Source: a virus (taxonomy: Duplodnaviria; Heunggongvirae; Uroviricota; Caudoviricetes). Taken from it: DNA of 64,000 bases. Shown one piece after another: positions 6,803 to 27,700 of this stretch (positions are counted from its first letter, which is position 1; every line of letters begins with the position of its first letter). The notes under the pieces were generated by a model. That model worked only from the letters and a program-made list of their open reading frames with translations, ran no database searches and was not told where the DNA came from. The position numbers were made by a program, and so were the translations under genes. The stretch lies in the IMG/VR virus record IMGVR_UViG_2671180890_000004, one strand, 5' to 3'.

Positions 6803-6804
6803 TA

Positions 6805-7074: not shown

Positions 7075-7101
7075 TCAGCACAACAGGAGGAGTCATAAAA
7101 T

Positions 7102-8192: not shown

Positions 8193-8201
8193 GGGCGCGG
8201 C

Positions 8202-8507: not shown

Positions 8508-9187
8508 CAGACCAGGATAAACACATTGAGAAACTGAAAAAGTTGCTGGCGCTGGCCGCATCCGGCAACCCTCACGAGGCCGCTCTGGCACTGCGCCGTG
8601 CCCGTAAACTGATGGATGTTCACGGCATCACACATTCCGACATCGCCATGAGTGATATTGATGAAACCATCAGTCACTACTGGCCGACAGGCAGCCTCCG
8701 TCCACCGCGCTACATGCTGGGCCTGATGAACATCATCCGCGAGGCATTTGGTGTTAACTCCATCATTCACCCCGGCACATATCCGGGTGTGGGGTTCTAC
8801 GGCAACCGGGAACGGGCTGCACTGGCTGCGTACACCTGGGAAGTGCTGGCCCGCCAGCTGAAAAAGGCGCGTCAGCAATATATCAGCGCACAGAACAAAA
8901 GAATAAAAACTGCCACCCGTACCAGCCGTGGTGACCAGTTTGCTGAAGGCTGGGTGCTGGCCGTTATCAGTGAAATACAGTCCTTCGCCCTGACCGATGA
9001 CGAACGTGAACTGATGCAGCAGTGGCTGGAACATAAATACCCGCAGACGCAAACCACCAGGGCGCGTAAACCGGGAAGAAGCCGCAATGGCGACGCCTCG
9101 CGCTATGCGGGGTTTCTTGAAGGGCAGAACGTCAGACTGCACCGCCCGGTCAGTGGGCAGGAACAACAGAAACTGGAGGCCAGATGA
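8504..9187 (+). CDS. DUF2786-like phage protein
   Basis: N-terminal KLKKLLALAASGNPHEAALALRRARKLM signature. Confidence 0.5.
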   Translation: MTDQDKHIEKLKKLLALAASGNPHEAALALRRARKLMDVHGITHSDIAMSDIDETISHYWPTGSLRPPRYMLGLMNIIREAFGVNSIIHPGTYPGVGFYGNRERAALAAYTWEVLARQLKKARQQYISAQNKRIKTATRTSRGDQFAEGWVLAVISEIQSFALTDDERELMQQWLEHKYPQTQTTRARKPGRSRNGDASRYAGFLEGQNVRLHRPVSGQEQQKLEAR

Positions 9188-9414
9188 TTACGCTATCAGG
9201 TAAAAGCCGGAAATTAAAAGCCTGCCGAATATCTGCCAGATACCTTTTTGCCCGCGCCTTTTTTAAGAACGTCAGGCCGGGGATCACAATTGGTGTTATT
9301 GCCGGACGCGAACAGGTTGAAAAATACATGTCAGGTGCATGGTGGAATAACGACCCTGTCATTGCTGCCCGTAATATTCATATCAGTTGGGGGGATATTC
9401 AGAATGACGGCTGA
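9184..9414 (+). CDS. hypothetical protein
   Basis: ORF with overlapping stop/start on both sides. Confidence 0.3.
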   Translation: MITLSGKSRKLKACRISARYLFARAFFKNVRPGITIGVIAGREQVEKYMSGAWWNNDPVIAARNIHISWGDIQNDG

Positions 9415-9619
9415 ATCTGTTGTATGTGCCCTGTTCTGGTATTGTTTTGTCGGTTGGTGTACTGCTGAACTGCACCGCCGTTCAGGGTTTTATTCACGTT
9501 ACAGTGGTGCTGGCTACTGGATTAGCTGGTCGGTGATGTTCCTGTGCTGGCCTGTGGCGCTTCCTTTATATGTCGATTATATCGGTGGCGCAGGTAAAAG
9601 GAGCAACGATGATGACTAA
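9404..9619 (+). CDS. small membrane protein
   Basis: Two hydrophobic helices (VVCALFWYCFVGW, WSVMFLCWPVALPLYV). Confidence 0.35.
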   Translation: MTAESVVCALFWYCFVGWCTAELHRRSGFYSRYSGAGYWISWSVMFLCWPVALPLYVDYIGGAGKRSNDDD

Positions 9620-10061
9620 ACAACGTCTTATCCAGCTCATTCATATTGCCCGTAATGAACTGGGTATGGATGAAGACACCTACCGCCAGATGTTACAGGG
9701 GCTGACCGGTAAAGCCTCAACCAAAGGAATGGATACCACACAACTAAACTGCGTGCTGGAATCCATGAAAAGGAAAGGCTTTCGCGTTAAGCCTGCCGGA
9801 AAAGCCAGCTCCGGTTTACCGCTGGATAACCATCCGCAGTCCAGGAAAATCCGTGCGCTATGGCTTGAAATGGCTGCTGCCGGCATTGTTCGTGACCGTT
9901 CAGAAAATGCATTAGCGCGGTGGATCAAGCGGGAAACGGGCATCAGCGCCCTGCGCTGGCTCAGTACTGAACAGGCAAGCAGTGTTATTGAGAAACTGAA
10001 GAAGTGGCAGCGCAGAGCTGCGGGAGTCAAACATGAGCGACCTGAATCAGTTTCGAAGTAA
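9609..10061 (+). CDS. gemA: GemA-like protein (Mu gp16 family)
   Basis: Size and position immediately upstream of mor; AAGGAG RBS. Confidence 0.55.
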   Translation: MMTKQRLIQLIHIARNELGMDEDTYRQMLQGLTGKASTKGMDTTQLNCVLESMKRKGFRVKPAGKASSGLPLDNHPQSRKIRALWLEMAAAGIVRDRSENALARWIKRETGISALRWLSTEQASSVIEKLKKWQRRAAGVKHERPESVSK

Positions 10062-10431
10062 AGGGCCGGAACTCCTGGTGGAGCTGGCACAGCATACCTC
10101 TGAGACCGTTCGCGAGATTATTGATATTGAGCCCGCAATTGCCGACCAGATTGGTCAGGCCGTCGCGAACCGAATGATGCAGGTCTGGGGCGGGCAAAAC
10201 GTTTATTTCCCGATGGGCATGGTATGGAAGGTCAGTCAGCGCGACCGGGAAATCTTCAGGGAGTTTAACGGACGCAACCACCACGAACTGGCCCGCAAGT
10301 TTGGTGTTTCGCTTCAGTGGGTCTACAGCGTGGTTAAGCGGGTCAGAAAAGAAGAACTGGATCGGATGCAGGGCAGGTTGTTTGATGAAGATCTGCCAGA
10401 GGAGACGAAAGACGTTAACAAATCCAGATAA
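10033..10431 (+). CDS. mor: Mor-family middle-operon transcription activator
   Basis: C-terminal HTH (HELARKFGVSLQWVYSVVKRVRK) and position after gemA. Confidence 0.7.
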   Translation: MSDLNQFRSKGPELLVELAQHTSETVREIIDIEPAIADQIGQAVANRMMQVWGGQNVYFPMGMVWKVSQRDREIFREFNGRNHHELARKFGVSLQWVYSVVKRVRKEELDRMQGRLFDEDLPEETKDVNKSR

Positions 10432-10476
10432 TTCCTGCTTGTTAAAGTCCTTTCAAAAATCTCCTTATTGTATAAA

Positions 10477-10507
10477 AGCACGGTAGACCCCTTACCGTGC
10501 TTTTTTT
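10477..10507 (+). terminator. rho-independent terminator after mor
   Basis: Stem GCACGGTA / TACCGTGC followed by T7. Confidence 0.6.
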
Positions 10508-10545
10508 ATGCTCTCTCTTTAGTATTCAGGATGCAGGGAGAAAAT

Positions 10546-11178
10546 ATGTTTGACGTTTCGTTGTTAAATCTGCCATGGGCAACACTGGTGACCCTGACCA
10601 GTGGCTATATTGGGTATTTTATTGCGAATGTGGGACTGAAGGATCACCACAAGCCCATTGAGGTGACTTTTTCTTCGCTGATTTTTGGCCTGACAGCAAT
10701 GATGGCTTACCAGGCTGTTATGTGGGCAGGTCTGAATGCCTGGCTGGCAACACCACCAGCACTTCTGTGTGCCCTTACATGCGGTGCGTGGTGGCGCAGG
10801 TACGGTCGCAAATGGATGTACAGATTACTGTGGAATAATGATATTTCATGGTCTGACGATACCAGCTCAGCATGGCAGGCAATGTTTGATCAAACAGGCT
10901 TCAGCGTTACCGAGGTCAGAGTGATTCTTCGCGATGGTTCCGGTATGATGTCACGGCTGCCAGGGAACTTTGAAGAGTGGCCTAACGGTCCGTTTACCCT
11001 GGGGAATAAAGGCGATATGGTTCTTTACGTCACGCACAGCAGCCCTTCAGGCAGTAACGAATGGGAAGAGTATAAAGGCGTGGTTGATAAGTACTGGGGA
11101 GCTCTGGCAACCTATATTCCAGCAGATCAGATTGCCAGAGTGGAGATCAGGCGCGTTCGTGCAACGAACGATGAATGA
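10546..11178 (+). CDS. membrane protein with C-terminal soluble domain
   Basis: ATG at 10546 with GGGAGA RBS; three or four N-terminal hydrophobic helices. Last gene before the gabP junction. Confidence 0.45.
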   Translation: MFDVSLLNLPWATLVTLTSGYIGYFIANVGLKDHHKPIEVTFSSLIFGLTAMMAYQAVMWAGLNAWLATPPALLCALTCGAWWRRYGRKWMYRLLWNNDISWSDDTSSAWQAMFDQTGFSVTEVRVILRDGSGMMSRLPGNFEEWPNGPFTLGNKGDMVLYVTHSSPSGSNEWEEYKGVVDKYWGALATYIPADQIARVEIRRVRATNDE

Positions 11179-11526
11179 TGTTTATTTTTTCCCTGGGGCA
11201 GGGGCTGCCGGCATAGTGGTTTTATTGGCAGAGGAAGACGATTCTCCTTTTCTACCGGAATCGCGCTCGAACGTCACGATGTGCTTGCTTTTGGGCTTTT
11301 CTGAGTAATCCAGGCTATCATGCTTATTGTTTTGAGTAGTCATTGGAATCATCCTTTTTGTTGCGGGTCATGTTTCAGCAAACTCGATTCTAAGTTGCCA
11401 GGAAGGATGATTTCAATGCCCGACTTATCTATCGTATAGCGGAAAAGAATTTCAGTTCTGTTCACCAGAACCCATGTTAACCCACTCCAATTCGTTATTT
11501 ATCTCACGGATCCCCCTTCATTTATC

Positions 11527-11913
11527 TCATGTCTGATCAGGAATGCCTGGAACCCATGAGTGCAGGATCATGGCGGCGATGTTGGCTTCAAGTGGGATAA
11601 CCAGTACCCAAAACCACCAGTACAACCAGCCGATGGTATAGCCCGCCCAGCGGCCAATGGCTTTATCGGCATAGGTGGAAAACGAACCGGTATCGGGCGT
11701 GGCAACCGCCATTTCCGCCAACATCCGCATAATCATAACCACCAGTAATCCGGCGAACAGATAGGCCAGTAATACCGCCGGGCCCGCTTCGGCGATGGCG
11801 ACGCTGGAACCGACAAACAGACTTGCGCCGATAACACCGGCAATAGACAACATGGTGACGTGGCGTGACTTCAGCCCGCCGCCTAACTCATGTGGTTGCG
11901 ATGATTGCCCCAT
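11527..11913 (-). pseudogene. gabP: gabP, truncated GABA permease (N-terminal ~125 codons only)
   Basis: Near-identical to the E. coli GabP N-terminus up to ...HSWVPGIP, then diverges (DQT-stop); the remaining ~340 codons are absent from the window. Confidence 0.85.
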
Positions 11914-12149
11914 CCTGAATCCTCTCGAAAGTGTGTCACTTGGGAGAGCGCCCCGACATTTCCCGCGTCGGGTCACGCGTTTAATTGTTATTGGTTCTTT
12001 TTGCCGGAGAGCGGCTCCGCCTTATCCGGCCGACATAGATTTATTCCTGTTCACGTACAGATTGTCGGATGCGGCGTAAACGCCTTATCCGACCTGGATT
12101 CTCGTAGGCCGGACAAGCCGCAAAGCGTCGCCTCCGGCATGGTGCGGTG

Positions 12150-13436
12150 CTACAGCTTCGCCTCAGCAAAACACTGGCTGATGATCTCCAGACCCTGACG
12201 GATCTGAGCGTCTTCAATGGTGAGCGGTACAAGGATGCGCAGCACGTTGTAATACGGGCCGCAGGAGAGAAGAATCAGACCCTTATCGCGGGCGCGTGCC
12301 ACGATCTCGGCGGTGAGTTTTGCGTCCGGTTTGCTGTGATCGCCATCTTCAAACAGCTCGATGGCGATCATCGCCCCCAGACCGCGTACGTCGCCGATCT
12401 CCGGGTGTTTTTCGGCTATCGCCAGCAATCCGTCTTTCAGCTTCTGCCCCAGAACGTTGGCTTTTTGCAGCAGATTTTCCTGCTCGAACACCTTCAACAC
12501 TTCCAGCGCCGCTACGCAGGCAATCGGGTTACCGGCATAGGTGCCACCCAGTCCGCCCGGTGCGACGGCGTCCATCACTTCCGCGCGCCCGGTGACGCCC
12601 GCCAGCGGGAAACCGCCTGCGATCGATTTCGCAAAGGTGGTGAGATCTGGTGCCACGCCCATTTGCTCCATCGCAAACAGCGTGCCGGTACGCCCTGCGC
12701 CGCTCTGCACTTCATCGGCAATCAGCATGATCCCGTGCTCGTCACACAGCGCGCGTAAACGCTGCATAAAGGCTGGCGTCGCGGCGTAGAAACCGCCTTC
12801 GCCCTGAACGGGCTCAATCACGATGGCGGCGATATCTTCCGGCGCGGCGTCATTTTTGAAGATCCGGTGGATGCTGGCGATAGCGTCATCCTCGCTTATG
12901 CCGTGCAGCGGGCAAGGATAAAGCGCGCGATAAACATGACCCGGCATCAGCCCCATGCCCGCAGAGTACGGATTCACCTTGCCGGTCAGCGCCAGCGTGT
13001 AATGCGTGCGCCCGTGATACGCACCGCTAAAGGCGATAGTACCGCTACGTTTAGTGGCGGCGCGGGCGATTTTCACCGCATTTTCCACCGCTTCGGAACC
13101 GGTCGTAACCAGCAGAGTTTTCTTGGCAAAATCGCCCGGCACCTTCTGATTCATAATCTCGCACAGCTCCAGATACGGCTCGTAGGCCAGCACCTGGAAG
13201 CAGGTGTGCGACAGTTTTTTCAATTGCGCTTCCACCGCCGCAACCACTTTCGGATGCAGGTGCCCGGTATTGAGCACCGCAATCCCGCCCGCGAAATCAA
13301 GATACTCACGGCCTTCAACGTCCCACACCCGGCAGTTTTCCGCGCGGTCAGCGAAAATCGGGTGAATTTGCCCAACGCCACGGGGAATCGCCTGACTGCG
13401 GCGCTGCATTAACTCTTTATTGCTGATCATTCGCAT
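12150..13436 (-). CDS. gabT: 4-aminobutyrate aminotransferase
   Basis: Full-length match to E. coli GabT (recalled). Confidence 0.95.
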   Translation of the reverse strand: MRMISNKELMQRRSQAIPRGVGQIHPIFADRAENCRVWDVEGREYLDFAGGIAVLNTGHLHPKVVAAVEAQLKKLSHTCFQVLAYEPYLELCEIMNQKVPGDFAKKTLLVTTGSEAVENAVKIARAATKRSGTIAFSGAYHGRTHYTLALTGKVNPYSAGMGLMPGHVYRALYPCPLHGISEDDAIASIHRIFKNDAAPEDIAAIVIEPVQGEGGFYAATPAFMQRLRALCDEHGIMLIADEVQSGAGRTGTLFAMEQMGVAPDLTTFAKSIAGGFPLAGVTGRAEVMDAVAPGGLGGTYAGNPIACVAALEVLKVFEQENLLQKANVLGQKLKDGLLAIAEKHPEIGDVRGLGAMIAIELFEDGDHSKPDAKLTAEIVARARDKGLILLSCGPYYNVLRILVPLTIEDAQIRQGLEIISQCFAEAKL

Positions 13437-13443
13437 TCTCCAG

Positions 13444-14892
13444 TTAAAGACCGATGCACATATATTTGATTTCTAAGTAATCTTCGATGCCATACTTCGA
13501 ACCTTCACGACCCAGACCCGAGGCTTTAATGCCGCCGAACGGGGCCACTTCATTGGAAATAATGCCGGTGTTGATGCCGATGATGCCGTACTCCAGTGCT
13601 TCGCCCACGCGGAAGACGCGGCTTAAATCACGGGCGTAGAAATAGGCTGCAAGTCCAAATTCGGTGTCATTGGCTTGCGCAATCACATCGGCTTCATCTT
13701 TAAAACGGAACAGCGGGGCGAGGGGGCCAAACGTCTCTTCTTTCGACACTTTGGCGTTAGCCGGAACGTCTACCAGAATGGTCGGCTGGAAGAAGTTACC
13801 GCCGCGTTCATGTGCTTTACCGCCGCAAACCACGCGCGCGCCTTTCTCCAGCGCATCAGCAATATGCTCTTCCACTTTTGCTACCGCTTTTTCATCGATC
13901 AACGGCCCGATGGTGACGCCTTTCTCCAGCCCGTCGCCGATGTGCAGTTTGCTCACCGCCTGCTGCAATTTTTCGGCAAAGCGGTCATACACGCTGTCCT
14001 GCACATACAGGCGGTTGGCGCAGACGCAGGTTTGCCCGGCGTTACGGAATTTCGAGGCCAGCGCGCCTTCCACGGCTTTATCGAGATCGGCATCGTCAAA
14101 GACAATAAACGGTGCGTTGCCGCCCAGCTCCAGCGACACTTTTTTGATGTCTTTCGCGCACTGTTCCATTAACTGACGGCCAATTTCGGTCGAGCCGGTA
14201 AACGACAGCTTGCGCACCAGCGGGTTGCTGGTCAGTTCGTTACCGACCGCGCCCGCCGAACCGGTGACCACGTTAAACACGCCAGCCGGAACGCCCGCGC
14301 GAATCGCCAGTTCTGCCAGCGCCAGCGCAGAGAACGGCGTCTGACTGGCGGGCTTCAGCACCATGGTGCAGCCAGCCGCCAGCGCCGGACCAGCTTTACG
14401 GGTAATCATCGCCGCCGGGAAGTTCCATGGCGTGATAGCCGCGGTGACGCCAATCGGCTGCTTGATCACAATCAGGCGTTTATCGGCCTGATGACCGGGA
14501 ATGGTGTCGCCATAAATACGTTTGCCTTCTTCAGCAAACCACTCAATAAATGAGGCGGCGTAGCTGATTTCGCCTTTCGCTTCAGCCAGTGGTTTGCCCT
14601 GTTCGAGGGTCATCAGGCGCGCTAAATCGTCCTGATGCTCCATCATTAAATTGAACCAGTTGCGCAGAATGTTGGCGCGTTCTTTGGCAGTGAGCGCACG
14701 CCAGGCGGGCAGGGCGCGGCTGGCGGCGTCGATAGCGGCGCGGGTTTCATCAGCGCCCATTTTCGGCACGCTACCCAGCTTGTCGCCGTTCGCCGGATTG
14801 GTGACGTCGATGACCTCGCCATTGTTGGCGTCCAGCCATTCCCCGTTAATCAACGCCTGCTGGCGGAATAAGTTACTGTCGTTAAGTTTCAT
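13444..14892 (-). CDS. gabD: succinate-semialdehyde dehydrogenase
   Basis: Full-length match to E. coli GabD (482 aa). Confidence 0.95.
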   Translation of the reverse strand: MKLNDSNLFRQQALINGEWLDANNGEVIDVTNPANGDKLGSVPKMGADETRAAIDAASRALPAWRALTAKERANILRNWFNLMMEHQDDLARLMTLEQGKPLAEAKGEISYAASFIEWFAEEGKRIYGDTIPGHQADKRLIVIKQPIGVTAAITPWNFPAAMITRKAGPALAAGCTMVLKPASQTPFSALALAELAIRAGVPAGVFNVVTGSAGAVGNELTSNPLVRKLSFTGSTEIGRQLMEQCAKDIKKVSLELGGNAPFIVFDDADLDKAVEGALASKFRNAGQTCVCANRLYVQDSVYDRFAEKLQQAVSKLHIGDGLEKGVTIGPLIDEKAVAKVEEHIADALEKGARVVCGGKAHERGGNFFQPTILVDVPANAKVSKEETFGPLAPLFRFKDEADVIAQANDTEFGLAAYFYARDLSRVFRVGEALEYGIIGINTGIISNEVAPFGGIKASGLGREGSKYGIEDYLEIKYMCIGL

Positions 14893-14917
14893 CGCTACAT
14901 CCTGTTTTCAAAGGTTA

Positions 14918-16183
14918 TTAATTAAATGCGGCGTGTAAGGCATCCACACTACGTGCCGCTCGCAGCGTGCGTCCGGGGTTACTCTGGCTTGCCAACAGCG
15001 TTTGTACCTTGCTGACAATATGCGCACCAATAGGAATTGCTGATGTCGCTGCCGGGGAGGGCGCATTACAGGTGTGGATCGTGCGCGGGGTGGTGACAAA
15101 CAGAAAATCGTCAATCAGCTTGCCGTCCGGCGATACCGCCTGCGCCCGCACACCGGGGGGCCAGGGCTGGAGATCGCTTAACGAAAGCCGGGGACAATAC
15201 TTTTGCACCAGCCGCAGATAGCCGCTTTTGCACAGCGAGTTTTTCATCTCGCCCAGTCCTGAGCGTAGATGGTTTTGCAGCACCCGGCGAATCCCCGACG
15301 AGCCTAAAATCTCCAGCGTGTCACTAAATGAGAAGTCGCGCTTGCGGTAGCCTTCGCGTTTGAAAGCCAGCACCGCGTTTGGCCCGACGGTCACGCTGCC
15401 GTCGATCATGCGGGTGAGATGCACGCCCAAAAACGGCATTGCCGGGTCGGGAATGGGGTAAATCAGGTGGTTAACAATCTGGTTATGCTCTGGCGCAAGG
15501 CGGAAATACTCGCCGCGGAACGGGCAGATAATAAAGCCCGGTTCGAGGCCGAGCATTTTCACCAGCCGGTCAGCCATCAGCCCGGAACAACTAATCAGCG
15601 TCGATGCTTCATATTCACCGCCCTGACGGGTACGTATCACCACGCCGTTTTTATGCTCACTGAGGGCGCTGACTTCGGCGTTATAAATAATCTCACCACC
15701 TCTGGCCTGGAAGATTTTTGCCATCGCCGCCGTCACTTCGCGGTAGCTGACAATGCCGCTGGACGGCACAAAAATGCCGCCAAGCCCGGTGATATTCGGT
15801 TCACGCTCGCGCAGCTCCTCGGCGTTTAACCACTCGCGCTCGATCCCGTTTGCCGCCGTGCGTTTCCATAACGCATTCATCCGTTCCATTTCGAGTTCAG
15901 ACGTGGCGACCAGCATCTTGCCGCAGTTGTCGTAGCGAATGCCGTTTTGATCGCAAAAGACTTTAGTGGCGCGGTTCCCCGCCAGGCAAAACTGCGTCTT
16001 CAGGCTACCGGGCGTGTAATAGACTCCGGCATGGATCACGCCGCTGTTGTGGCCCGTCTGGTGACAGGCAGGGCCGGACTCTTTTTCCAGCAACGCAATG
16101 CGGGCGTCAGGATAGATATCAATCAGTTGCATGGCGGTCGACATGCCGATGATGCCGCCGCCAATAATCACAAAATCATACAT
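14918..16183 (-). CDS. lhgO: L-2-hydroxyglutarate oxidase/dehydrogenase
   Basis: Start at MYDFVIIGGG (FAD-binding GxGxxG); matches E. coli LhgO (422 aa). Confidence 0.9.
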   Translation of the reverse strand: MYDFVIIGGGIIGMSTAMQLIDIYPDARIALLEKESGPACHQTGHNSGVIHAGVYYTPGSLKTQFCLAGNRATKVFCDQNGIRYDNCGKMLVATSELEMERMNALWKRTAANGIEREWLNAEELREREPNITGLGGIFVPSSGIVSYREVTAAMAKIFQARGGEIIYNAEVSALSEHKNGVVIRTRQGGEYEASTLISCSGLMADRLVKMLGLEPGFIICPFRGEYFRLAPEHNQIVNHLIYPIPDPAMPFLGVHLTRMIDGSVTVGPNAVLAFKREGYRKRDFSFSDTLEILGSSGIRRVLQNHLRSGLGEMKNSLCKSGYLRLVQKYCPRLSLSDLQPWPPGVRAQAVSPDGKLIDDFLFVTTPRTIHTCNAPSPAATSAIPIGAHIVSKVQTLLASQSNPGRTLRAARSVDALHAAFN

Positions 16184-16202
16184 CCGCTCAATTCCTTTGC
16201 GC

Positions 16203-17279
<1,077 letters not shown>

Positions 17280-17708
17280 TTACATATTGTTTTCTTATTG
17301 TGATCAAAAACAGCAAATTAATAACAAGTAATGTGAGGGATAAGAATTGGGTTGAAAGGAAATGAATAATTAAAACAATATATTAAGTGTGCTTATACTC
17401 TTTTTCGAACTGGTGGCATTTGTTTAAATGCTATTTAAACTGCTTTTTCAGAGTTCAACTTACTGAGTTCCGTGTCGACTAATGTGAGTAAGATCAATCG
17501 CATCCAACCTATGTTACTTGATGGCATCGATAACAATATTAATGAACATACAGATTCCGGGAAGGCTGGCTATGGGGGCAAATTATTCTCTTTCTGGAAA
17601 CGGGTAAATAACAGTGACCATTTGTCGAGAAGCTGATACTGAGCTGAGGGATACTGTATATGTCTGGACTGTAATTGGATGAATTCTATTCAGGGCGGGT
17701 CAGGACCA

Positions 17709-17735
17709 ATAAAAAAGCCCGCATCAGCGGGCTTT
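17709..17735 (-). terminator. rho-independent terminator (minus strand)
   Basis: Stem AAGCCCGC / GCGGGCTT; the U-tract is on the minus strand (A-run 17710-17716). Confidence 0.4.
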
Positions 17736-17863
17736 AATGTCATAGGGAGTCGCGACTCCGTTGCGTATCCTTTTTTGTCTCCTCACCGTCTGGTCGGTGT
17801 CCTGCTGAGACTTATAACTTCCTGTTTTTGTTGGTGTAGTCCTTACACCGTCCAATCATTATT

Positions 17864-17890
17864 TGGTGGAGCTGGCGGGAGTTGAACCCG
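17864..17890 (-). other. ssrA: 27-bp copy of the 3' end of ssrA (tmRNA): prophage attachment-site core
   Basis: TGGTGGAGCTGGCGGGAGTTGAACCCG is the reverse complement of the ssrA 3' terminus; sequence beyond it is not ssrA, so this is an att repeat, not a gene. Confidence 0.7.
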
Positions 17891-18321
17891 TGTCCATAGT
17901 TATGTAATTCATTGAATTTAAATAGCCAAATATTGTTGATTTTACACGCGGCTCTTTTGCGGAACTTTTTCTGTCCTGTTACTGTCTTACTATTTATTTT
18001 AAAATAGTTTCATTTGGAATTAATGGTTTGTGGTTGCAGTTTCGGAGATAGATAGCATTTTTTGCTAAAAAATATTTTTATAAAAAATGTGTGTAAAAAT
18101 GATGTTATGCACAGATTTATACACAGAGGCTTTGTAATAAACCAGATTATTTTGGATAAGTTTGTTTTTTTGTGATTTGTCAACAATATTATTGACTCTT
18201 GTTACTAAAGTGAGTGTTTTCTAAGGTGGCCAGAAGTTGTCCCTTCATGTAATCTTATTAGCCATAAAGAACAAAAAATAATTCAACATCATTACCAACT
18301 ATTTGTAAGATAAGGTTTTTA

Positions 18322-19137
18322 ATGTTGCAGCCAGCAAAAAAAGCATCAGTTATTAGCGCGCGGCTAACTAAATACCTCAAAGATGGAGTGAGGATTGATG
18401 ACTTTAGCTTTAGAAGGATGTTACGTGAGATTGAAGCACTTAGAGATCCTGTCTCTGAGGACTATCTTTTAGCGTTGGTCTATGGTGCACATGGTCAAGT
18501 GAATGAGGCGATAGGCTTCTTTGAGCGTTCCTTGCAGGTATGCCATAATGAGGTTGTTGCAAAGAATTTTCTTGTTTTCTTGTCAGATTACGGTACGTTG
18601 AAGAAAAGCTTTGAAACAAGCATTAAGCTTGCTGAAAGCTTCATATCCCCGTTTATTTATCTTCAAGCTTATGAAAACTCCCTCTTTATGGGGAAGATGG
18701 CGTTGGCGGAGAAGTATTTCCAGTCATACTCTAAATTGTTCGGAGATAAGGAGCCTGAAAAAATGGACAACCATCTTGATGAAGTTGTTTCCCAGGTCGA
18801 ATCCTTTAAGCAACGTGCCGATCTTTCTGGTTTAGAATATGAACTTATTTTCAATAATGTAGCCAATGTCATGGATTCTCAGAAGGTTCATCTTTCGGGA
18901 ATGCGTTTTTATAATATTTCGGAAGAGAAAGTGAATGCGATTGTATTCATGACAAAGTCTTCTGATGCTGAACAAATCGCTGATATGAATATTGAGCTTG
19001 CTTTTTCAATGGCTGAGCACGATTGTTTAGTCGGTAAAGATTTTGCTGTTTGGTTTGAATGTAAAGACACACATATTGAGCAGAATGCTATCTCCGAATT
19101 AGGTCTGATTACCCGGAGGGTTGCACATGCCGGTTAA
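18322..19137 (+). CDS. hypothetical cargo protein (271 aa), first gene of att-int cassette
   Basis: AT-rich ORF between the att core and int; no motif recognised. Confidence 0.5.
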   Translation: MLQPAKKASVISARLTKYLKDGVRIDDFSFRRMLREIEALRDPVSEDYLLALVYGAHGQVNEAIGFFERSLQVCHNEVVAKNFLVFLSDYGTLKKSFETSIKLAESFISPFIYLQAYENSLFMGKMALAEKYFQSYSKLFGDKEPEKMDNHLDEVVSQVESFKQRADLSGLEYELIFNNVANVMDSQKVHLSGMRFYNISEEKVNAIVFMTKSSDAEQIADMNIELAFSMAEHDCLVGKDFAVWFECKDTHIEQNAISELGLITRRVAHAG

Positions 19138-19510
19138 TAGTCAAGATTTTCTCGGTTTTGCAAAAGACTGTCATCAACGTAATGACGAAATCGGCTATCG
19201 AAATGCTATAGCAAGATCCTACTATGGCGCTTACCATCATGTCTTGCCTTGTATGGTAAACGGGCCGAAAGACAGTCATCAGGGGCTAATCAATTATTTG
19301 CAGGGCGATGCTTCAAGAGGAAGTGAAGTATATGAAGCTAGATATCTAAAAGGGATTAGTTTTATCCTGAGTCAACTTAAAGCTCAGAGGATTGTTGCAG
19401 ACTATCGACTTGATCAATCGGTCACTTCTAAACAGTCTGAAGTTGCGATTCTAACAACTGAGAGGCTCTTTGCTAAGTGTACGGAAATGCTTAAATCGAG
19501 AGCCTCCTAA
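19127..19510 (+). CDS. hypothetical cargo protein (~128 aa), coupled to upstream gene
   Basis: ATG at 19127 with GGAGGG RBS, overlapping the upstream stop by 11 nt; contains an R-x6-H segment (RSYYGAYHH) that could be HEPN-like (speculative). Confidence 0.45.
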   Translation: MPVNSQDFLGFAKDCHQRNDEIGYRNAIARSYYGAYHHVLPCMVNGPKDSHQGLINYLQGDASRGSEVYEARYLKGISFILSQLKAQRIVADYRLDQSVTSKQSEVAILTTERLFAKCTEMLKSRAS

Positions 19511-19517
19511 TTGATAA

Positions 19518-19539
19518 AGCCACTTAAGTGGCTTTTTTT
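19518..19539. terminator. bidirectional terminator between cargo operon and int
   Basis: Stem AGCCACTT / AAGTGGCT followed by T7. Confidence 0.5.
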
Positions 19540-20696
19540 GTGATATTGCTGGTCGTATTACCGTCATATTCCTTTAAATATGAACCATAATGACGAAATA
19601 ACATTTCCGGCCCTTTATGCCCCATTTGAGCTGCAAGCCAAAACAGGTTTGCTCCCCGGCTGATATGGCGGGTGGCGAATGTATGCCTAGTTTGATATGG
19701 ATTTCTGTAACGAATACCTGCTTTTCGCAATGTTGGCACCCATGCTTTTTTCCTGATTGCATCAGCACTTGCCCAGGGCTTATTGGTCTTTGGATCTTCA
19801 AAGACAGTAGCATCCTTCATGAATGTAAATGGCTTCTGATTTATCAGCGCCAACATTGCTTCTTCAGTCAGTTCAACTTTACGGGTACCGGCTTTTGTCT
19901 TTGTCCCTTTGATAACACCGACAACACTTGCGCTCTGGACATGGGCAGTTTTTCCAACAAAGTCGATATCACGCCATCGAAGGGCACATAATTCAGAACT
20001 ACGCAGGCCTGTATGTATAGCGAACCGGAACAGATTTTCCCATTGTTTTTTTCCGGCTGCTGCTAGTAATGCATCAACTTCTGCTGGTGATAGCGGATCA
20101 ACCACGTAGCTGCTTTCTGCTTCTGACTTATCACTTTGGTAGCGCGAAGCAGTTACCAACGATACGGGGTTAATTTGAAGTACCCCATCGGTTACGGCTT
20201 CATCAAGTGCTGACCGCAGGAAAGATAACTGGTTGCGAATTGTTTTTAAGGTCGTTTTCTGGCTTTGAATCCACGCTTTCAGGATTGCTGGTGTTAATTC
20301 ACTTGCAGGGCAAATGTGGAGTGAGGCTAACGCACTACGGCATTTTTTATAACCACCAATCGTAGAGGGTGAAAGTTTTCTTGTTTCGCAGATTTCAAGA
20401 TATTCGTCCAGGTACATCTTTACCGTTTTGCCTGCAGCAGCATTACCAAAAATTTTCAAACGAGCAGAACGGGGAAAATATTCTGCATAAATGAATGTTC
20501 CCCTTTCGATCTTATTATGGATTTCGCCGAGTGTACGCTCGGCGTATTTAATGTTCTTTGGTGTTACTTCCAGATTGGAAAGCGGCTCACGACATCTAAC
20601 TCCTTTGTAGGTGAAAGTTATATTGATCGTTTCTCCCTGGCGGTGTTTCCTGATTGTTACGCCGCGCGGTAGTTTGAGCAGTTTTGTCTGGCCCAT
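19524..20696 (-). CDS. int: tyrosine recombinase (phage integrase)
   Basis: C-terminal catalytic region with conserved R (LRSSELCALRWRD), HxxR (HTFATRH) and tyrosine near LFRHYGSY; adjacent to the att core. Confidence 0.85.
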   Translation of the reverse strand: MGQTKLLKLPRGVTIRKHRQGETINITFTYKGVRCREPLSNLEVTPKNIKYAERTLGEIHNKIERGTFIYAEYFPRSARLKIFGNAAAGKTVKMYLDEYLEICETRKLSPSTIGGYKKCRSALASLHICPASELTPAILKAWIQSQKTTLKTIRNQLSFLRSALDEAVTDGVLQINPVSLVTASRYQSDKSEAESSYVVDPLSPAEVDALLAAAGKKQWENLFRFAIHTGLRSSELCALRWRDIDFVGKTAHVQSASVVGVIKGTKTKAGTRKVELTEEAMLALINQKPFTFMKDATVFEDPKTNKPWASADAIRKKAWVPTLRKAGIRYRNPYQTRHTFATRHISRGANLFWLAAQMGHKGPEMLFRHYGSYLKEYDGNTTSNITKKAT

Positions 20697-20902
20697 TTTG
20701 CAACCTCACTAAGATCAATCCACCTCTCCTTAACGCCTTCAACCTTTAAAACCTGAACACCTTCACGCCAAACACCGCGCTGTACACGTTTGTTTATTGC
20801 TTCAGGAGTTTCGCCAGTTTCTTTGCAATAAGTTGAGATAGGAACACAATCGAGGTTCAGCATACGTTTCTCCATTATCCCGTCTGCACACGGGAGCAAC
20901 AT
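20657..20902 (-). CDS. xis: excisionase-like DNA-binding protein
   Basis: Small basic protein overlapping the int start; likely true start at MEKRM (20875) with AGGAG-like RBS. Confidence 0.6.
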   Translation of the reverse strand: MLLPCADGIMEKRMLNLDCVPISTYCKETGETPEAINKRVQRGVWREGVQVLKVEGVKERWIDLSEVAKWARQNCSNYRAA

Positions 20903-20904
20903 TA

Positions 20905-21795
20905 TTAACGAATAGTGTCGTTACTTTGAAGTACAGCAAATGCCATTAATACTTCTAAAGTATATCTTCTATAAAATTTAACAAAACCAACATAGAAAAC
21001 ATAGACGAAGAAAAAGCTAAGCATTATTGAAAGTAAACTATAAAGATAATCACTATGAGTACATAATCGATAAATAAAGGTTGGAACTGATACCCAAAAT
21101 GAAATTATAAAGATTAAACATATGTTTCTGCAAAAACCATATAATGCAACATAGTTTTGAATTTTTGTTTGATGTTGTTTTGAAAACTCATAAACATAAT
21201 GATATGCCAATCTGAAGAGATCATCATCAAGTCCGTTTTTATCTTGTAATAATTGGCGATTTGTTATGAACTTTTTCTCATAACCTTCTTTGATCATTAA
21301 CCATGTTGTATTAGCTAAATGAAATGGTAGAGATTGAGAATAACATAGTTTTTGTGTTATAAAATCCCATAGTATTATTGGACATAATACGCATTTGATT
21401 ATGCGATTCTTTATTTTTGTTTTTTTATCAGCGCTTCTCTCATCGCATGATGGGCTACAAATGCTTTCTGAGGTATCTATCAATTTTTTAAATAGATATT
21501 TGGAAGGATATCCTAATTCTTTATTCATGTATTTTTCGATAAAAAATGCTGACGTGATAGAAATAAAATGTCCAGCTATATAAGATATAATAACTATTGA
21601 AGCGTAGTTCAAAATGCCAAAGATTTGACTTTGACCTCTGAGCAATTCACTTAAGTCAATAACAATATCTAGATCGAATGTCAAACCACAGAAATACATT
21701 AATAGGATGAAAAAACCACCTGGTATTAAATATCCAAGAAAGTCATAGAATGAGAATGGATTTTGATTCATTGTTGCTCTCCAATAATTTTTCAA
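20905..21795 (-). CDS. polytopic membrane protein (296 aa), AT-rich cargo
   Basis: Very AT-rich codon usage; several predicted TM helices; immediately upstream of xis in the leftward operon. Confidence 0.5.
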   Translation of the reverse strand: MKNYWRATMNQNPFSFYDFLGYLIPGGFFILLMYFCGLTFDLDIVIDLSELLRGQSQIFGILNYASIVIISYIAGHFISITSAFFIEKYMNKELGYPSKYLFKKLIDTSESICSPSCDERSADKKTKIKNRIIKCVLCPIILWDFITQKLCYSQSLPFHLANTTWLMIKEGYEKKFITNRQLLQDKNGLDDDLFRLAYHYVYEFSKQHQTKIQNYVALYGFCRNICLIFIISFWVSVPTFIYRLCTHSDYLYSLLSIMLSFFFVYVFYVGFVKFYRRYTLEVLMAFAVLQSNDTIR

Positions 21796-21879
21796 TTTGT
21801 AATATAACCTATATCTATATGTTAATAAATTACTTATATGTTCTTTTATGGCAGAGTTTGAATTCGTACGTGCTGATTT

Positions 21880-22431
21880 TTACGACTCAGTTAACTCTTT
21901 AAAGCGTTCCATAAACATCCCATAGGTATGGCCTGGCGACAGTGGAATAACTTTGAACATCTCTGTTGCCGGGATACCTTCCAGTACGGGCCAGAAAGAG
22001 CCATCATCAAGCCCGAGATCGCGGCGTTCGGTTGCCAGCATGATGAGATCGGCATATTTCACGGGCGTACTCATAACCGGGGGTAACCCGTATTTCTCAC
22101 GGATTACGGCGTCTATTTTTTCTTCCATCCGTTTATAGTCAGGAAGAAGGCGTTTCAGTGGCGCCGGGATGTCCTGGCAATACGCTTCTGTTGCATCATG
22201 CATTAACGCTTCAAAAGCAAATTCCTGCGGTACCAGTTGGCTGCAAAGCACCGCATGTTGGGCGACGCTGTAGAAATGTGAAAGATGTCCTGCAAAGCGA
22301 CAGATATTTGAAAGAGAAACCGCGATATCGTTAATAACGATGTCGTCTTTATTTATCCTGTCATAATAAAAATGCTTCCCGGAAAAAGTTTTAATAAATG
22401 ACATTTTGTTCTCCACGTATATGCGCTGCAC
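21880..22431 (-). CDS. HD-domain phosphohydrolase (YfbR/YfdR-like 5'-deoxynucleotidase family)
   Basis: H...HD motif (RFAGHLSH...ALMHDATEAY). Confidence 0.55.
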   Translation of the reverse strand: MQRIYVENKMSFIKTFSGKHFYYDRINKDDIVINDIAVSLSNICRFAGHLSHFYSVAQHAVLCSQLVPQEFAFEALMHDATEAYCQDIPAPLKRLLPDYKRMEEKIDAVIREKYGLPPVMSTPVKYADLIMLATERRDLGLDDGSFWPVLEGIPATEMFKVIPLSPGHTYGMFMERFKELTES

Positions 22432-22531
22432 CGCGCTGAATTCTGGTAAAAGAAAGCCCTCACCATCCGGCGATTATTGAGTCAATTACGTTTCCATAAA
22501 TGCCCCCGCAGGGGCATTTGCAGTAATGAAA

Positions 22532-23356
22532 TCAGGCGGTAAAAGTACCAATAAAGGTTTCTACTTTGCTGTCCTTGAATTTCTCAACAAGCAGATCACG
22601 AAATTCGTTAGCCATTTCTTCCTGCACTGCTTCCAGCTGAATAATGCGCAGAACCAGTACAGGACGATCGCCAGTGATAATGCTGAGGCGTAATTTAAAC
22701 GGACGTTCTTTCAGGCCTTCAAACGGAACGCATTTAAATTCAAATGTCACTGGCATAATATCTTTGGTCTTCGCTTCGACAGACTCCATCAGGGAGCGTT
22801 TGCCGCTGAAGTCATTGTCTTCAAAATCAGCGGTCTGGTTTGCTTCAATCGTGATTTTACGGACTGCCGCAGCCGCTTTTGTTGCCTGAATGACATCACC
22901 ATTAGCATCAAAGCCCACAAGGTAGTCGGCCCAGTCTTCAATCCATTCTGCCAGTGACTTCTGGGAGTTACGCTCGCCGTTAACAGACAACAGAGCAGAG
23001 AACGGTGCTGTCTTTTTCAGTTTGAGAGTGGCGGTGTTATCTGCGTGACCAGGCTCATCAATAGTACCCAGGTTAAGCACACTGACGGCACGCATATTAT
23101 CGGCATCGATAAAGCAGCGGGTGCCTTCATCCGCAAGATCTTTAGAATAACGGGTAAAGTCATCGATGCTGGCAGTGGAAAGCGCACCACGGAAACGGAA
23201 GCGATTTAAATTAAATTTTTCCAGATCATGAATGCGGAAATTTTCAGGTAATGCCACTGCGTCGGCACCAATCTTACTGATAATTTCATTAACACCCTGA
23301 GCAGAAATAAGGGCATGGATTTGATTAATTGCGGTTGCGTCTAAGTTCTGAGACAT
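22532..23356 (-). CDS. hypothetical early-left protein (274 aa)
   Basis: ORF only; tentative recollection of YfdQ-like prophage proteins, unverified. Confidence 0.45.
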
Positions 23357-23421
23357 AATAAGTCCTCACTATATAAAGATATTCAGTGATGAGATAAATA
23401 ATCAGTTAATTAAGAACGATA

Positions 23422-23784
23422 TTAATGACCTGCTGCGCGGAGTTTTCCGTCAGGTTCACCGGCAAGAGTCAGTAATTGTCCCTGGTCTTCCTGCAGAATA
23501 GTCAGGCGACCACCGCGATTGACATACATCGGCGTTTCGGTGGTGTCTTCTTCGGAAATTTTCCCGCGGTTAGTCGGACGAACATATGAGAGTTTGTGTT
23601 TTATTTTCACACGGTTCTCATCAAACGGTTCGATTTCCAGGTTGAGCGAGACCTTACCTTTGGTTTTCGTGTTCATCACACCGGAAGCGACTTCACTGAG
23701 AACTGCGCCGATTTTGGTTTCAAATACGCCGCCGTCCAGCTCCCCGATAAATTCCTGCACGTTGGTACTGCGTTCGCTAGCCAT
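23422..23784 (-). CDS. hypothetical protein (120 aa)
   Basis: Start at MASERSTN with AGGAG RBS 8 nt upstream. Confidence 0.45.
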   Translation of the reverse strand: MASERSTNVQEFIGELDGGVFETKIGAVLSEVASGVMNTKTKGKVSLNLEIEPFDENRVKIKHKLSYVRPTNRGKISEEDTTETPMYVNRGGRLTILQEDQGQLLTLAGEPDGKLRAAGH

Positions 23785-24384
23785 TTTGCTGCTCCTCATC
23801 ATATCGACCCTGCAAGGCCGATTAGTTTCTCCACAAAACAGAGAAGAACACCTGCGGTGGCAGCCGCCCCGGTGGATTGGGTTATGAGCCCGTCGTCCGG
23901 TGATGCTCTTCTCTGTTTTGTAAAAAGAGCGGTACCAGCCGGAAGCAAGGGTAGAAGCTGGTACCGCCAGGACTACACACAGCATAAAGTTGTGGTGCCG
24001 GGTGCCTCCCGGTGCCTGGCGAAGGTTGCACACCAGGCGGGTGGGTATCCACAGAAGGTCGACTGTCAGCCTCAACCTTAACCCGCGTGCGCTGAGCCGC
24101 ATTCACCACAACGCTAAGGATTCTCTCAGGTTGAAAATACTTAGCTGTTATGTGCCTGTCTTTTCACCACTTCAGGCTCGGTGGTATCCTTTTAAGCCCG
24201 TATACATAAAAGGAAAATCAAATGACTTTTGATGAAAAAGAACTTGATAATGCAATTAATAAAATCATCGTAACGTCGCTCTTTTCCTGTCTCAGCGACA
24301 CTCAGCAAAAACAGTTCTACGAATCGGCTTTCAACATGATCGAGCGTTGTTGTTTCTGCGATGCCGACGAGTTACCTGAAAAAA

Positions 24385-24681
24385 TCAGGAAACAGTTGGC
24401 TGATGCTCTTCGAGTGCGACTTTCTGACCAATTTTCTGAAATGTGCTCTCCGAATTTGGACAAATAGAAAAAGGCCATTTCCATTCAGGGTCTGATGGAA
24501 ATACTTCAGCCTGTTCCAAAGCACGGCGTAAAGAGAACACAACTCCAGCCATAATCTGATGTTTCCCATTGGTCCAGCTATCGCCGCTCTGATCTACAGG
24601 GGCGGCTATGTCGTATGACCAAACGACTTCACAGTTATTGTTTAAAATCTGGACTTTCATTTCATACACCTGCTTTAACAT
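24385..24681 (-). CDS. small hypothetical protein (possible first gene of leftward early operon)
   Basis: ORF only; overlaps a plus-strand ORF (24222..24467), so one of the two is probably spurious. Confidence 0.3.
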   Translation of the reverse strand: MLKQVYEMKVQILNNNCEVVWSYDIAAPVDQSGDSWTNGKHQIMAGVVFSLRRALEQAEVFPSDPEWKWPFSICPNSESTFQKIGQKVALEEHQPTVS

Positions 24682-24817
24682 GAGTGCCTAGTGGCACAAC
24701 ATGACTCAACGAATCATCCTGGACTTCATATGCCCCAGGCGGCTACTTCGTGGGCGTCCTGCCTGTTCGTTGTTTCGCTTAGGTACATTATGTATCTCAA
24801 GGGTACATTGTCAAGTA

Positions 24818-24840
24818 TAAAAAAACCTGCCGAAGCAGGT
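24818..24840 (-). terminator. rho-independent terminator after the repressor gene
   Basis: Stem ACCTGC / GCAGGT with the U-tract on the minus strand. Confidence 0.5.
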
Positions 24841-24853
24841 TCATAAACATTGA

Positions 24854-25528
24854 TTAGGCTTTGATTTTGTATCTTCTTGGTTTTCCTGAGAAAATCACTG
24901 TACCAATTATAGAGCAATTACCGTTGATCTTAATGTAAGGCTCAGGCCAGTTTGGGTTTAACGCTTTGAGATAACGCTGTGTCCCATCTTCTATCAACCT
25001 TTTGAAGGTGGTTTCACCTGTATCGTGCATCAATGCAATAACGTCGTCACCGTGGCAGGCAGGTACTTCAGGATCGACAAAAATCATGTCTCCCGGGCGG
25101 TACTCATCAATCATTGAATCACCTATCACCCGCAAGATATAAGTCATTTCCCCACAGGGTACAGGGCAGGGATACGTTTCTGCTGTGCTCAAATCAACCT
25201 CAGAATATCCAACTTCTTTCCATGCTCCGGCCTGTACCCATGATATGACAGGGACTAATGTGATTTGTTTATTAGTGATTGAAACATCAGGTTTTTTTGT
25301 GATGTTCGTTGTCTGGTGTTCTTGATCGAGCCATCCGACAGGCAGGTCGAAACATTTTTCGATGTGTCGTGCCATGCTGTCACCGATATTTTTAGTAGCA
25401 CCATCTCCCATAAATCTGCTGGTCTGGGTTGGCTCGCGATCAATCATAGTGGCAAAGGAAGAATTCCCGCCAACACCATCTCTCAGTTTTCTGGCGTTAG
25501 ACCGCCGGATGTCATGGATTGTTTTCAT
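24854..25528 (-). CDS. cI: CI-like repressor (HTH + S24 LexA-like peptidase)
   Basis: C-terminal S24 motif VIGDSM and a Lys-containing partner region; divergent from the cro-like gene. Confidence 0.8.
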   Translation of the reverse strand: MKTIHDIRRSNARKLRDGVGGNSSFATMIDREPTQTSRFMGDGATKNIGDSMARHIEKCFDLPVGWLDQEHQTTNITKKPDVSITNKQITLVPVISWVQAGAWKEVGYSEVDLSTAETYPCPVPCGEMTYILRVIGDSMIDEYRPGDMIFVDPEVPACHGDDVIALMHDTGETTFKRLIEDGTQRYLKALNPNWPEPYIKINGNCSIIGTVIFSGKPRRYKIKA

Positions 25529-25543
25529 AACGAAATTAAAACC

Positions 25544-25564
25544 CTTGTACCGTTAAGGTACAAG
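25544..25564. promoter_or_regulatory. operator-like perfect palindrome in the cI-cro intergenic region
   Basis: CTTGTACC-gttaa-GGTACAAG; a second palindrome AATATGTA-n9-TACATATT at 25592-25616 overlaps the cro RBS. Confidence 0.45.
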
Positions 25565-25618
25565 TATCTTGAAGGTTCATTTCAATCATGTAATATGTAT
25601 ACCGGAGGTACATATTGT

Positions 25619-25819
25619 ATGAAAGCGTATTGGGACTCTTTAACCAAAGAACAGCAGGGCGAGTTGGCCGGAAAAGTTGGCTCAACACCTGGCTACTTAC
25701 GGCTGGTTTTCAATGGCTATAAAAAAGCCAGTTTTGTGCTGGCTAAAAAACTTGAGCAATGCACGTCAGGTGCAATTACGAAATCTGACTTAAGACCGGA
25801 TATCTATCCGAAAGATTAG
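25619..25819 (+). CDS. cro: Cro-like HTH regulator
   Basis: 66-aa ORF with GGAGG RBS, divergent from the repressor. Confidence 0.65.
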   Translation: MKAYWDSLTKEQQGELAGKVGSTPGYLRLVFNGYKKASFVLAKKLEQCTSGAITKSDLRPDIYPKD

Positions 25820-25850
25820 CAGAACACTTTCAATTTTTAACCACAGAACG

Positions 25851-26414
25851 ATGAGGCTAATCGTGGGTAAGCATCACTGGAAAATAGAAAAACAGCCTGA
25901 GTGGTACGTGAAAGCTGTCAGAAAAACTATCGCGGCGTTGCCGGGGGGTTACGCTGAAGCGGCTGACTGGCTCGATGTAACAGAAAACGCTTTATTCAAC
26001 CGCCTTCGTGCAGATGGCGATCAGATTTTCCCGCTGGGATGGGCAATGGTTTTACAGCGTGCTGGTGGCACTCACTTCATTGCTGATGCTGTGGCGCAGT
26101 CTGCAAATGGCGTCTTTGTGTCTCTTCCTGACGTCGAGGATGTGGACAACGCCGATATCAACCAGCGCCTGCTGGAAGTCATTGAACAGATTGGCAGTTA
26201 TTCCAGACAGATTCGTTCAGCAATCGAAGACGGTGTAGTGGAACCGCATGAGAAGACAGCAATTAACGACGAGCTGTATCTCTCAATTTCGAAGCTGCAG
26301 GAGCATGCAGCACTGGTCTACAAAATCTTTTGCATTTCAGAAAGTAATGACGCCCGCGAGTGTGCAGCTCCGGGCGCCGTGGCGTGTCGTGACTGTGGAG
26401 AAACTAACGCATGA
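25851..26414 (+). CDS. hypothetical early regulator (187 aa)
   Basis: Position equivalent to cII/YdaT-like genes; no firm motif. Confidence 0.4.
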
Positions 26415-26769
26415 ACAGTTTAACAACACACTACCGTCGCTCGCAACTGATTGCGCTTCCTGTACCGGGTGGAAAAGCGAAGATGGAGTATTGCTATGCA
26501 GTTAATGTACCAGGTGACAGGGAAATTGTAACCCACAGCTTTGCTGAGTGGGCTGTGGGTGATTTCAACCGGCAGAAGGAGACAGTCCTTTGCGAGAAGT
26601 TAACCGCTGGTTCAAAGATCACTACGGAGTGCCCGTCAGAGTCATTCGTTGGGAGCCGGAAACACAACGGGTTATCTACCTCCGCGAAGGCTATGAGCAT
26701 GAGTGCTTCAGCCCGCTCGAACAGTTTCGTCGTAAATTCAGGGAAATAGAGGTCGGTCATGAGCACTAA
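26411..26769 (+). pseudogene. hypothetical gene with apparent frameshift
   Basis: Protein-like translation switches from frame 2 (26411-~26600) to frame 1 (~26590-26769); the annotated frame-2 tail is low-complexity. Confidence 0.3.
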
Positions 26770-27700
26770 ATTAACCGGCTATGTATGGGATGGTTGCGCA
26801 GCGTCAGGCATGAAATTATCCAGCGTGGCAATTATGGCCCGCCTGGCTGATTTCAGTAATGACGAAGGTGTGTGCTGGCCATCAATTGAAACCATTGCCC
26901 GCCAGATTGGCGCGGGGATGAGTACCGTCAGAACGGCTATCGCACGGCTGGAAGCAGAAGGCTGGCTAACGCGTAAGGCGCGTCGCCAGGGTAACCGCAA
27001 TGCGTCGAATGTTTATCAGCTTAACGTTGCGAAGCTTCAGGCAGCGGCATTTTCTCAACTGTCAGATTCTGACCCGTCAAAATCTGACGCATCAAAATCT
27101 GACCCGTCAAAATTTGATGCGTCGAAATCTGGTAAAAAAGCGGGTTTTCACCCGTCAGAATCTGGCGGGGATCCGTCAGTAAAATCAAAACATGATCCGT
27201 CAGATAAAAAACCTTCTCGTCCGGACGCTTCGCAACCGGACACGCAGACGGCTGAACAGGATTTTTTAACTCGCCATCCTGATGCGGTTGTATTCAGCCC
27301 TAAAAAGCGCCAGTGGGGGACGCAGGATGATTTGACCTGCGCACAGTGGCTCTGGAAAAAAATCATCGCCCTGTACGAGCAGGCTGCCGAATGTGACGGC
27401 GAGGTGGTTCGTCCCAAAGAACCGAACTGGACAGCCTGGGCAAACGAAATTCGCCTGATGTGTGTGCAGGATGGTCGTACTCACAAACAAATCTGCGAGA
27501 TGTACAGCCGCGTCAGCCGCGATCCGTTCTGGTGCCGTAACGTGCTCAGCCCGTCGAAGCTGCGGGAAAAATGGGATGAGCTTTCCCTGCGCTTATCGCC
27601 GTCCGTAAGCACGTACACCGAAAAACGCGAAGACCCGTACTTCAAATCCAGTTACGACAACGTGGACTACAGCCAGATCCCGGCAGGATTCAGGGGGTGA
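26759..27700 (+). CDS. replication initiation protein (lambda O-like), contains ori iterons
   Basis: N-terminal HTH region (SVAIMARLADFSNDEGVCWPSIETIARQIG) and internal iterons coding a DxSKSD repeat. Confidence 0.75.
   Translation: MSTKLTGYVWDGCAASGMKLSSVAIMARLADFSNDEGVCWPSIETIARQIGAGMSTVRTAIARLEAEGWLTRKARRQGNRNASNVYQLNVAKLQAAAFSQLSDSDPSKSDASKSDPSKFDASKSGKKAGFHPSESGGDPSVKSKHDPSDKKPSRPDASQPDTQTAEQDFLTRHPDAVVFSPKKRQWGTQDDLTCAQWLWKKIIALYEQAAECDGEVVRPKEPNWTAWANEIRLMCVQDGRTHKQICEMYSRVSRDPFWCRNVLSPSKLREKWDELSLRLSPSVSTYTEKREDPYFKSSYDNVDYSQIPAGFRG
27062..27133. repeat. origin iterons (four to five ~15-bp direct repeats, CGTCAAAATCTGACG-like) followed by an A-rich tract
   Basis: Directly visible tandem units at 27074, 27090, 27104 and 27120. 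Confidence 0.7.

Follow-up and report, generated by a model that had tools for sequence, protein, structure and literature searches.

Beside glaH/csiD, in the 64,000-nucleotide stretch of caudoviral DNA analysed here (the window), lies a 27-nt copy of the 3′ end of ssrA, the tmRNA gene. The question is whether this short sequence marks one end of an element integrated into ssrA and, if so, to which base that end can be fixed and where the intact gene lies. We consider it very probable that the 27-mer is the host's own ssrA 3′ end, displaced by a lambdoid phage of about 46 kb integrating site-specifically into the gene's 3′ end. As an att site, the feature is ordinary and of a kind already known.

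The sequence at positions 17864-17890 is TGGTGGAGCTGGCGGGAGTTGAACCCG, and its reverse complement is identical to the last 27 nt of ssrA, CCA included, as the original prediction had read it. The comparison set consisted of the annotated ssrA 3′ ends (…CGGGTTCAACTCCCGCCAGCTCCACCA) of five E. coli genomes, all of which matched. The 27-mer occurs once in the window with up to 3 mismatches allowed, a 16-mer from its T-arm part is also single, and none of 100 dinucleotide-preserving shuffles contained a match. The body of ssrA had been predicted to be missing, and this was borne out across the window: ARAGORN detected no tmRNA or tRNA gene, and an Rfam scan found no tmRNA, giving one unrelated match (IS009). 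A second ssrA-like copy was absent from the window in searches with the 27-mer (3 mismatches) and the 16-mer (2 mismatches). The fragment has the orientation of ssrA, lying on the minus strand of the window, and ssrA is on the minus strand in all the collinear genomes. We take the 27-nt block to comprise most of the 5′ strand of the T stem (4 of its 5 nt), the T loop, the 3′ strands of the T stem and of the acceptor, and ACCA. The 7-nt T loop is presumably TTCAACT, with the T-stem inverted repeat on both sides, and on the same assumption the identity block stops within the 5′ strand of the T stem. Past 17890 the likeness to ssrA is weak, with a mismatch at 17891 (T for C), then a matching GTCC, then a degenerate continuation (TGTCCATAGTT against CGTCCGAAATT in ssrA).

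The edge of the element was located by comparison with strains in which the site is unoccupied. An empty site was reconstructed by joining window 16900-17890 to the body of ssrA, and was searched against 5426 complete E. coli genomes. At least 80% of it was found in one place in 709 of these, and all 30 of the 30 matches listed cover 100% of it in one piece, running from glaH through about 680 bp to an intact ssrA. One such strain, S9, has glaH, 683 bp and then intact ssrA. It is identical to the window at 991 of 991 positions over 16900-17890, including the local CATTATT variant that lies immediately beyond the tmRNA end. The window departs from it at exactly 17891, where S9 goes on into ssrA. 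Everything up to 17890 is therefore host DNA, and the element begins at 17891; as read from this alignment, the prophage boundary is 17890/17891. The boundary had been predicted at about 17.86 kb, and a precise insertion junction does occur there, but position 17864 is not itself a junction. It marks no more than the 3′ end of mature tmRNA, and the native trailer and terminator of ssrA lie to its left. On the other side, the element opens with an arm of about 430 bp that is AT-rich (about 36-42% G+C) and non-coding. The fragment is useful mainly for this reason, in that it fixes one prophage boundary to the base. The features of the window are collected in Table 1.

Table 1. Features of the ssrA junction, its flanks and the integrated element, in window coordinates.
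Feature	Position	Strand	Basis
glaH/csiD	16203-17180	-	Annotation of collinear genome
Native intergenic DNA from ssrA terminator to glaH/csiD, outside the element	17181-17703		100% identical to S9 empty site
Native ssrA 3′ trailer and intrinsic terminator, displaced with the 27-mer	17704-17863	-	Identical downstream of intact ssrA in empty-site strains
Displaced ssrA 3′-terminal 27 nt	17864-17890	-	Exact match to annotated ssrA ends; S9 empty site
Phage-side junction arm	17891-18321		Alignment, composition profile, sequence
Two overlapping cargo ORFs, 271 aa and 129 aa	18322-19510	+	ORF list; hypothetical proteins in collinear genome
Tyrosine integrase, 390 aa	19524-20696	-	Pfam, PHROG integrase, LLS Int likeness
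Excisionase, 68 aa	20657-20863	-	phrog_2917 excisionase, E = 7.7e-44; position as putative xis of LLS
Lambdoid prophage body	20905-60074		Annotations of collinear genomes; EC01440 collinearity
Defence cargo, ssrA-proximal prophage end	60144-64000		Pfam and PADLOC
PD-T4-3 GIY-YIG protein	60144-60917	-	Pfam/PADLOC
M.EcoRII-like C5 methyltransferase	61282-62757	+	Pfam/PADLOC
EcoRII-type endonuclease	62792-64000	-	Pfam/PADLOC; start codon is last codon of window

The displaced DNA is longer than the 27-mer. A terminator hairpin at 17714-17735, followed by a T-run, forms a terminator-like site on the minus strand, and window 17712-17895 matches the ssrA 3′ end together with 152 bp downstream of it in lysogens, at 93.5% identity in UID2309220027 and 91.9% in EC01440. 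Because this stretch matches the ssrA-proximal copies of lysogens, both prophage ends carry an ssrA 3′ end with trailer and terminator. As judged from these alignments, the repeat at the ends is really about 185 bp long (about 92-93.5% identity), rather than 27 bp.

Within the trailer, a 14-nt palindrome at 17746-17759 reads GGAGTCGCGACTCC in the window and in the empty-site strains. A compensatory variant, GGAGCCGCGGCTCC, is present in phage LLS, in the ssrA-side copies of lysogens, and after psaA in K-12. In most strains a second palindrome, CCAATCATGATTGG (17852-17866), overlaps the CCA end; the window and S9 have a broken form of it (CCAATCATTATTTGG). A division of the trailer polymorphisms into phage-type and host-type was considered and dropped. 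The displaced trailer of K-12 carries the supposedly phage-type allele, and the variants are thus lineage alleles; the assignment of the left-junction copy to the host rests on its identity with the S9 empty site. The homology of the phage-borne trailer to that of the host ssrA, the compensatory palindrome and the palindrome over the CCA end could together suggest that the roughly 150-nt trailer and terminator carried by the phage are a functional module, either for pre-tmRNA maturation and termination in lysogens or as an Int/IHF arm of attP. We think this unlikely. If it were true, the tmRNA supply of lysogens would depend on sequence supplied by the phage.

The two copies of the repeat in UID2309220027 allow the place of strand exchange to be narrowed down. 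Beside the 27-mer they differ at 17842 (A/T), at 17860-17863 (TATT/GAT) and at 17891 (T/C), and the allele at the left junction equals that of the S9 empty site. Sequence of host type extends to 17863 or further and that of phage type begins no later than 17891, which puts the exchange inside 17864-17890. Strand exchange thus probably took place within the 27-mer, and for its exact position we can only infer a site. By analogy with published integration sites in tRNA genes, this may be the T loop, flanked by the T-stem inverted repeat. A T-stem/T-loop class of crossover sites for tRNA-gene integrases was reportedly described by Williams in 2002, and the 27-nt block fits it. A 'T-stem region' class of attP is also tabulated in the Islander paper (PMC4383910).

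A single integrase lies between the fragment and the end of the window, and it faces the fragment. Its Pfam domains, Arm-DNA-bind_2 (1e-23) and Phage_integrase (1.4e-16), score above the cut-offs, and Phage_int_SAM_5 is also present. Motifs of catalytic type (GLRSSE, HTFATR, GH and RHYGSY) were seen by eye in an alignment with the Int of the free phage LLS, to which the window Int is 86% identical. The excisionase gene overlaps the start of int, and both are read towards the att site. The N-terminal arm-binding and C-terminal catalytic domains of Int, with an adjacent Xis, are features of the lambda type. The 3′ fragment oriented like the gene, the internal tyrosine integrase and the uninterrupted site in relatives are likewise features of the Islander signature. 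A k-mer search of the reconstructed attP for arm-type Int repeats returned only palindromes and one shared 9-mer, none of them convincing. This 9-mer, CCATAGTTA, is common to both reconstructed attP arms (11 nt by eye, TCCATAGTTAT), but it shows no conservation in LLS or, as judged by eye, in the arm of UID2309220027.

The original prediction also expected an intact ssrA at the far end of the element, possibly past the restriction-modification (R-M) genes, and a matching direct repeat there; both were found in relatives. Over window 40000-64000, identity is 98.1% to EC01440 and 99.7% to AST81. In both strains the start codon of the EcoRII-type endonuclease gene is followed, 235 bp further on, by an intact minus-strand ssrA and then by smpB. 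Within that 235-bp stretch the phage-borne trailer and terminator precede the intact ssrA, and the junction between the endonuclease gene and ssrA is present in 128 genomes. The prophage of EC01440 is collinear with window 19578-64000 and is flanked on each side by a copy of the 27-mer, the distance between the copies being 45.9 kb. UID2309220027 has the left junction and int module as in the window, and its element is closed by ssrA at the other end. With relatives at 98-99.7% identity as a guide, ssrA in the window's own genome is predicted to lie about 235 bp past the window end, and the element would run from 17891 to about 64234, roughly 46.3 kb. Taken with the precise empty site and with int and xis facing the fragment, the far-end ssrA of the relatives agrees with the earlier reading of the fragment as the partial-repeat end of an ssrA-integrated element.

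EC01440 also carries a tandem array at ssrA, in which a second island lies beyond the displaced fragment (L006 12013-12039; region L006 10617-12039). This second island has its own integrase, ParB-like genes and a type I R-M system.

In the events that we propose, attP would bring its own copy of the ssrA 3′ end together with a homologous trailer and terminator. Because the virion of LLS carries the same block, the phage attP can be regarded as the supplier of the replacement 3′ end, trailer and terminator. A crossover in the shared block, with Int as the presumed catalyst, would then join the body of ssrA to the 3′ end supplied by the phage, so that tmRNA should stay functional, and the rebuilt gene would sit outside the window, about 235 bp past its right end. 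The 3′ end, trailer and terminator that belonged to the host would be left at the int-proximal end, fused at 17890/17891 to the phage arm. This int-proximal junction would be attL (BOP′) in the phage convention, and the 'displaced fragment' or attR in the convention used for islands in tRNA genes.

Other explanations of the fragment can be weighed against this evidence. Being identical in phage and host, the 27-mer is by itself unassignable, and the copy at the junction could be that of the phage if the crossover lay further left in the trailer, for example through homologous recombination across the 185-bp repeat. The roughly 185 bp shared at 92-93.5% would be enough for RecA-dependent exchange. 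We nevertheless consider this quite improbable, as the CATTATT to the left of the 27-mer is the host allele found in S9, whereas the ssrA-side copy of UID2309220027 has CATGAT. Only the 27-mer is then left for the exchange, unless gene conversion occurred later.

It is also conceivable that an older ssrA island, part of a tandem array, left the fragment behind as its scar, and that the junction of the present prophage lies elsewhere. Such arrays do occur at ssrA, as the second island of EC01440 with its own integrase illustrates, and 125 tandem arrays are reported in the Islander paper (PMC4383910). In the window, however, there is no other ssrA-like copy, and the stretch from the fragment to the window end has one integrase, which faces that fragment. 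Host sequence equal to the empty site runs to 17890, and the order of core, cargo, int and xis is the attP order of LLS, all of which makes an older scar very improbable. We give next to no weight to a chance resemblance, or to a decayed ssrA duplicate that arose without integration. The shortness of the match is the one point in favour, and it is offset by the absence of matches in the shuffles and by flanks that are native ssrA trailer and terminator on one side and a phage int module on the other. The same architecture recurs in many genomes, and the S9 empty-site comparison already refutes such an origin. Displacement of the host ssrA 3′ end by site-specific integration is the explanation that we retain.

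The element bounded in this way has a mosaic lambdoid body. Its early and middle genes comprise yfdR/yfdQ/yfdP-type early-left genes, an immunity and replication region, Q and lysis genes. The late genes comprise terminase, portal, a ClpP-capsid fusion, a lambda-like tail, J, Lom, and a tail fibre with its assembly gene. The Rfam match to IS009, full-length at 229 bits (59833-60031), lies within the tail-fibre assembly gene (59490-60074). The module from int to yfdP and parts of the early-right region are common to the prophage of UID2309220027, for which window 24184-34945 was compared. The late genes of that prophage are entirely different, whereas the late half of the window prophage matches lambda-like prophages, that of EC01440 among them.

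The two overlapping cargo ORFs between the att site and int match only PHROGs families of unknown function, and have no significant match in Pfam, NCBIfam or PADLOC. Weak matches link the 271-aa ORF to TPR and the 129-aa ORF to a HEPN-like PADLOC model (E = 0.0014). The same slot is filled by RloB and an AAA ATPase in EC01440, and by an AAA ATPase and a DNA adenine methylase in Ecol_732-type strains. It seems to be an exchangeable slot for cargo or defence genes, and the pair in the window may be an uncharacterised defence candidate. At the other end, defence cargo, made up of a PD-T4-3 gene and a complete EcoRII-type R-M pair, occupies the space from the tail-fibre assembly gene to the ssrA trailer borne by the phage. 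A separate R-M islet was considered here and ruled out. Because there is no further ssrA-like copy in the window, the element itself carries the R-M and PD-T4-3 genes as cargo, and they form no island of their own. EcoRII, PD-T4-3 and the two int-adjacent genes of unknown function thus belong to a single att-bounded element of about 46 kb.

On the host side, UID2309220027 is collinear with window 11540-24184 at 99.2% identity. The genes read from it over 11540-17180 are gabP (cut at 11540), gabT, gabD, lhgO and glaH/csiD, all on the minus strand. A Mu-like transposable prophage at window 1-11539, with genes for a DDE transposase, an ExeA/MuB-like ATPase, Gam, Mor and a Dam methylase, interrupts gabP, and its junction is at 11539/11540. 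Copies 100% identical to it are found elsewhere in the chromosomes of other strains, e.g. inside sfaA in FDAARGOS_1299. The insertion in gabP is absent from the 5426 complete E. coli genomes, none of which is collinear across base 11540.

Several known systems resemble the junction described here. At the distal end of the cryptic prophage CP4-57 in K-12, psaA is likewise a short ssrA 3′ fragment, in ssrA orientation, at the far end of an ssrA-integrated element, and the same family of native ssrA trailer and terminator comes after it. The K-12 fragment differs in being 14 nt long and imperfect (CCGCCAGCCCACCA), a shorter repeat than that of the window. CP4-57 is also P4-like, its IntA adjoins the intact ssrA and not the fragment, and the trailer of CP4-57 is unrelated. 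IntA is only 17% identical to LLS Int (PMC12315714). The gene ssrA acts as an integration hotspot at which unrelated elements converge.

The attP of Escherichia phage LLS (PQ299149) is closer, with the same succession of terminator, trailer of about 150 nt, tmRNA 3′ pseudogene, cargo, int and xis. Its 27-mer is identical, and LLS shares the yfdR/yfdQ/yfdP-type early-left genes and belongs to the lambdoid 'no Rec module' group. LLS is, however, a free virion genome, so that its site is an attP and not a junction, and it has other cargo between the core and int. Past the identity block its sequence is CGCCCGTAATTC, against TGTCCATAGTT in the window, and its block is 86.7% identical to the host copy of the window over 186 bp. 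The authors of the LLS description reported 29 bp identical to the ssrA 3′ end, and expected the phage to integrate there without destroying the gene (PMC12315714).

The ssrA prophage of the uropathogenic E. coli (UPEC) strain CFT073 shares the left junction, the two cargo genes and the integrase. It matches window 15500-20500 in one piece at 98.0% identity, in a comparison that covers window 11540-24000 only. Of the exact junction stretch, 17780-18000, at least 80% is present in 17 genomes. UID2309220027 joins the same int module to a late region with tail sheath and baseplate genes, unlike the lambda-like late region of the window.

More generally, the signature of islands located in genes for tRNA and tmRNA (tDNA), and integration into such genes, were reportedly described by Reiter in 1989 and by Williams in 2002 and 2003. 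The principle of integration has been in the literature since 1989-2003, and CFT073 and other sequenced strains carry the junction, so that the locus holds no new biology. A regenerated tDNA and a displaced fragment mark the two ends of such islands, and the tmRNA gene is their most enriched target (PMC4383910). The window has the tyrosine integrase inside the element and the displaced 3′ fragment in gene orientation, and nothing essential differs from that signature. Its repeat is unusually long in comparison, because the attP also carries the trailer and terminator homologue.
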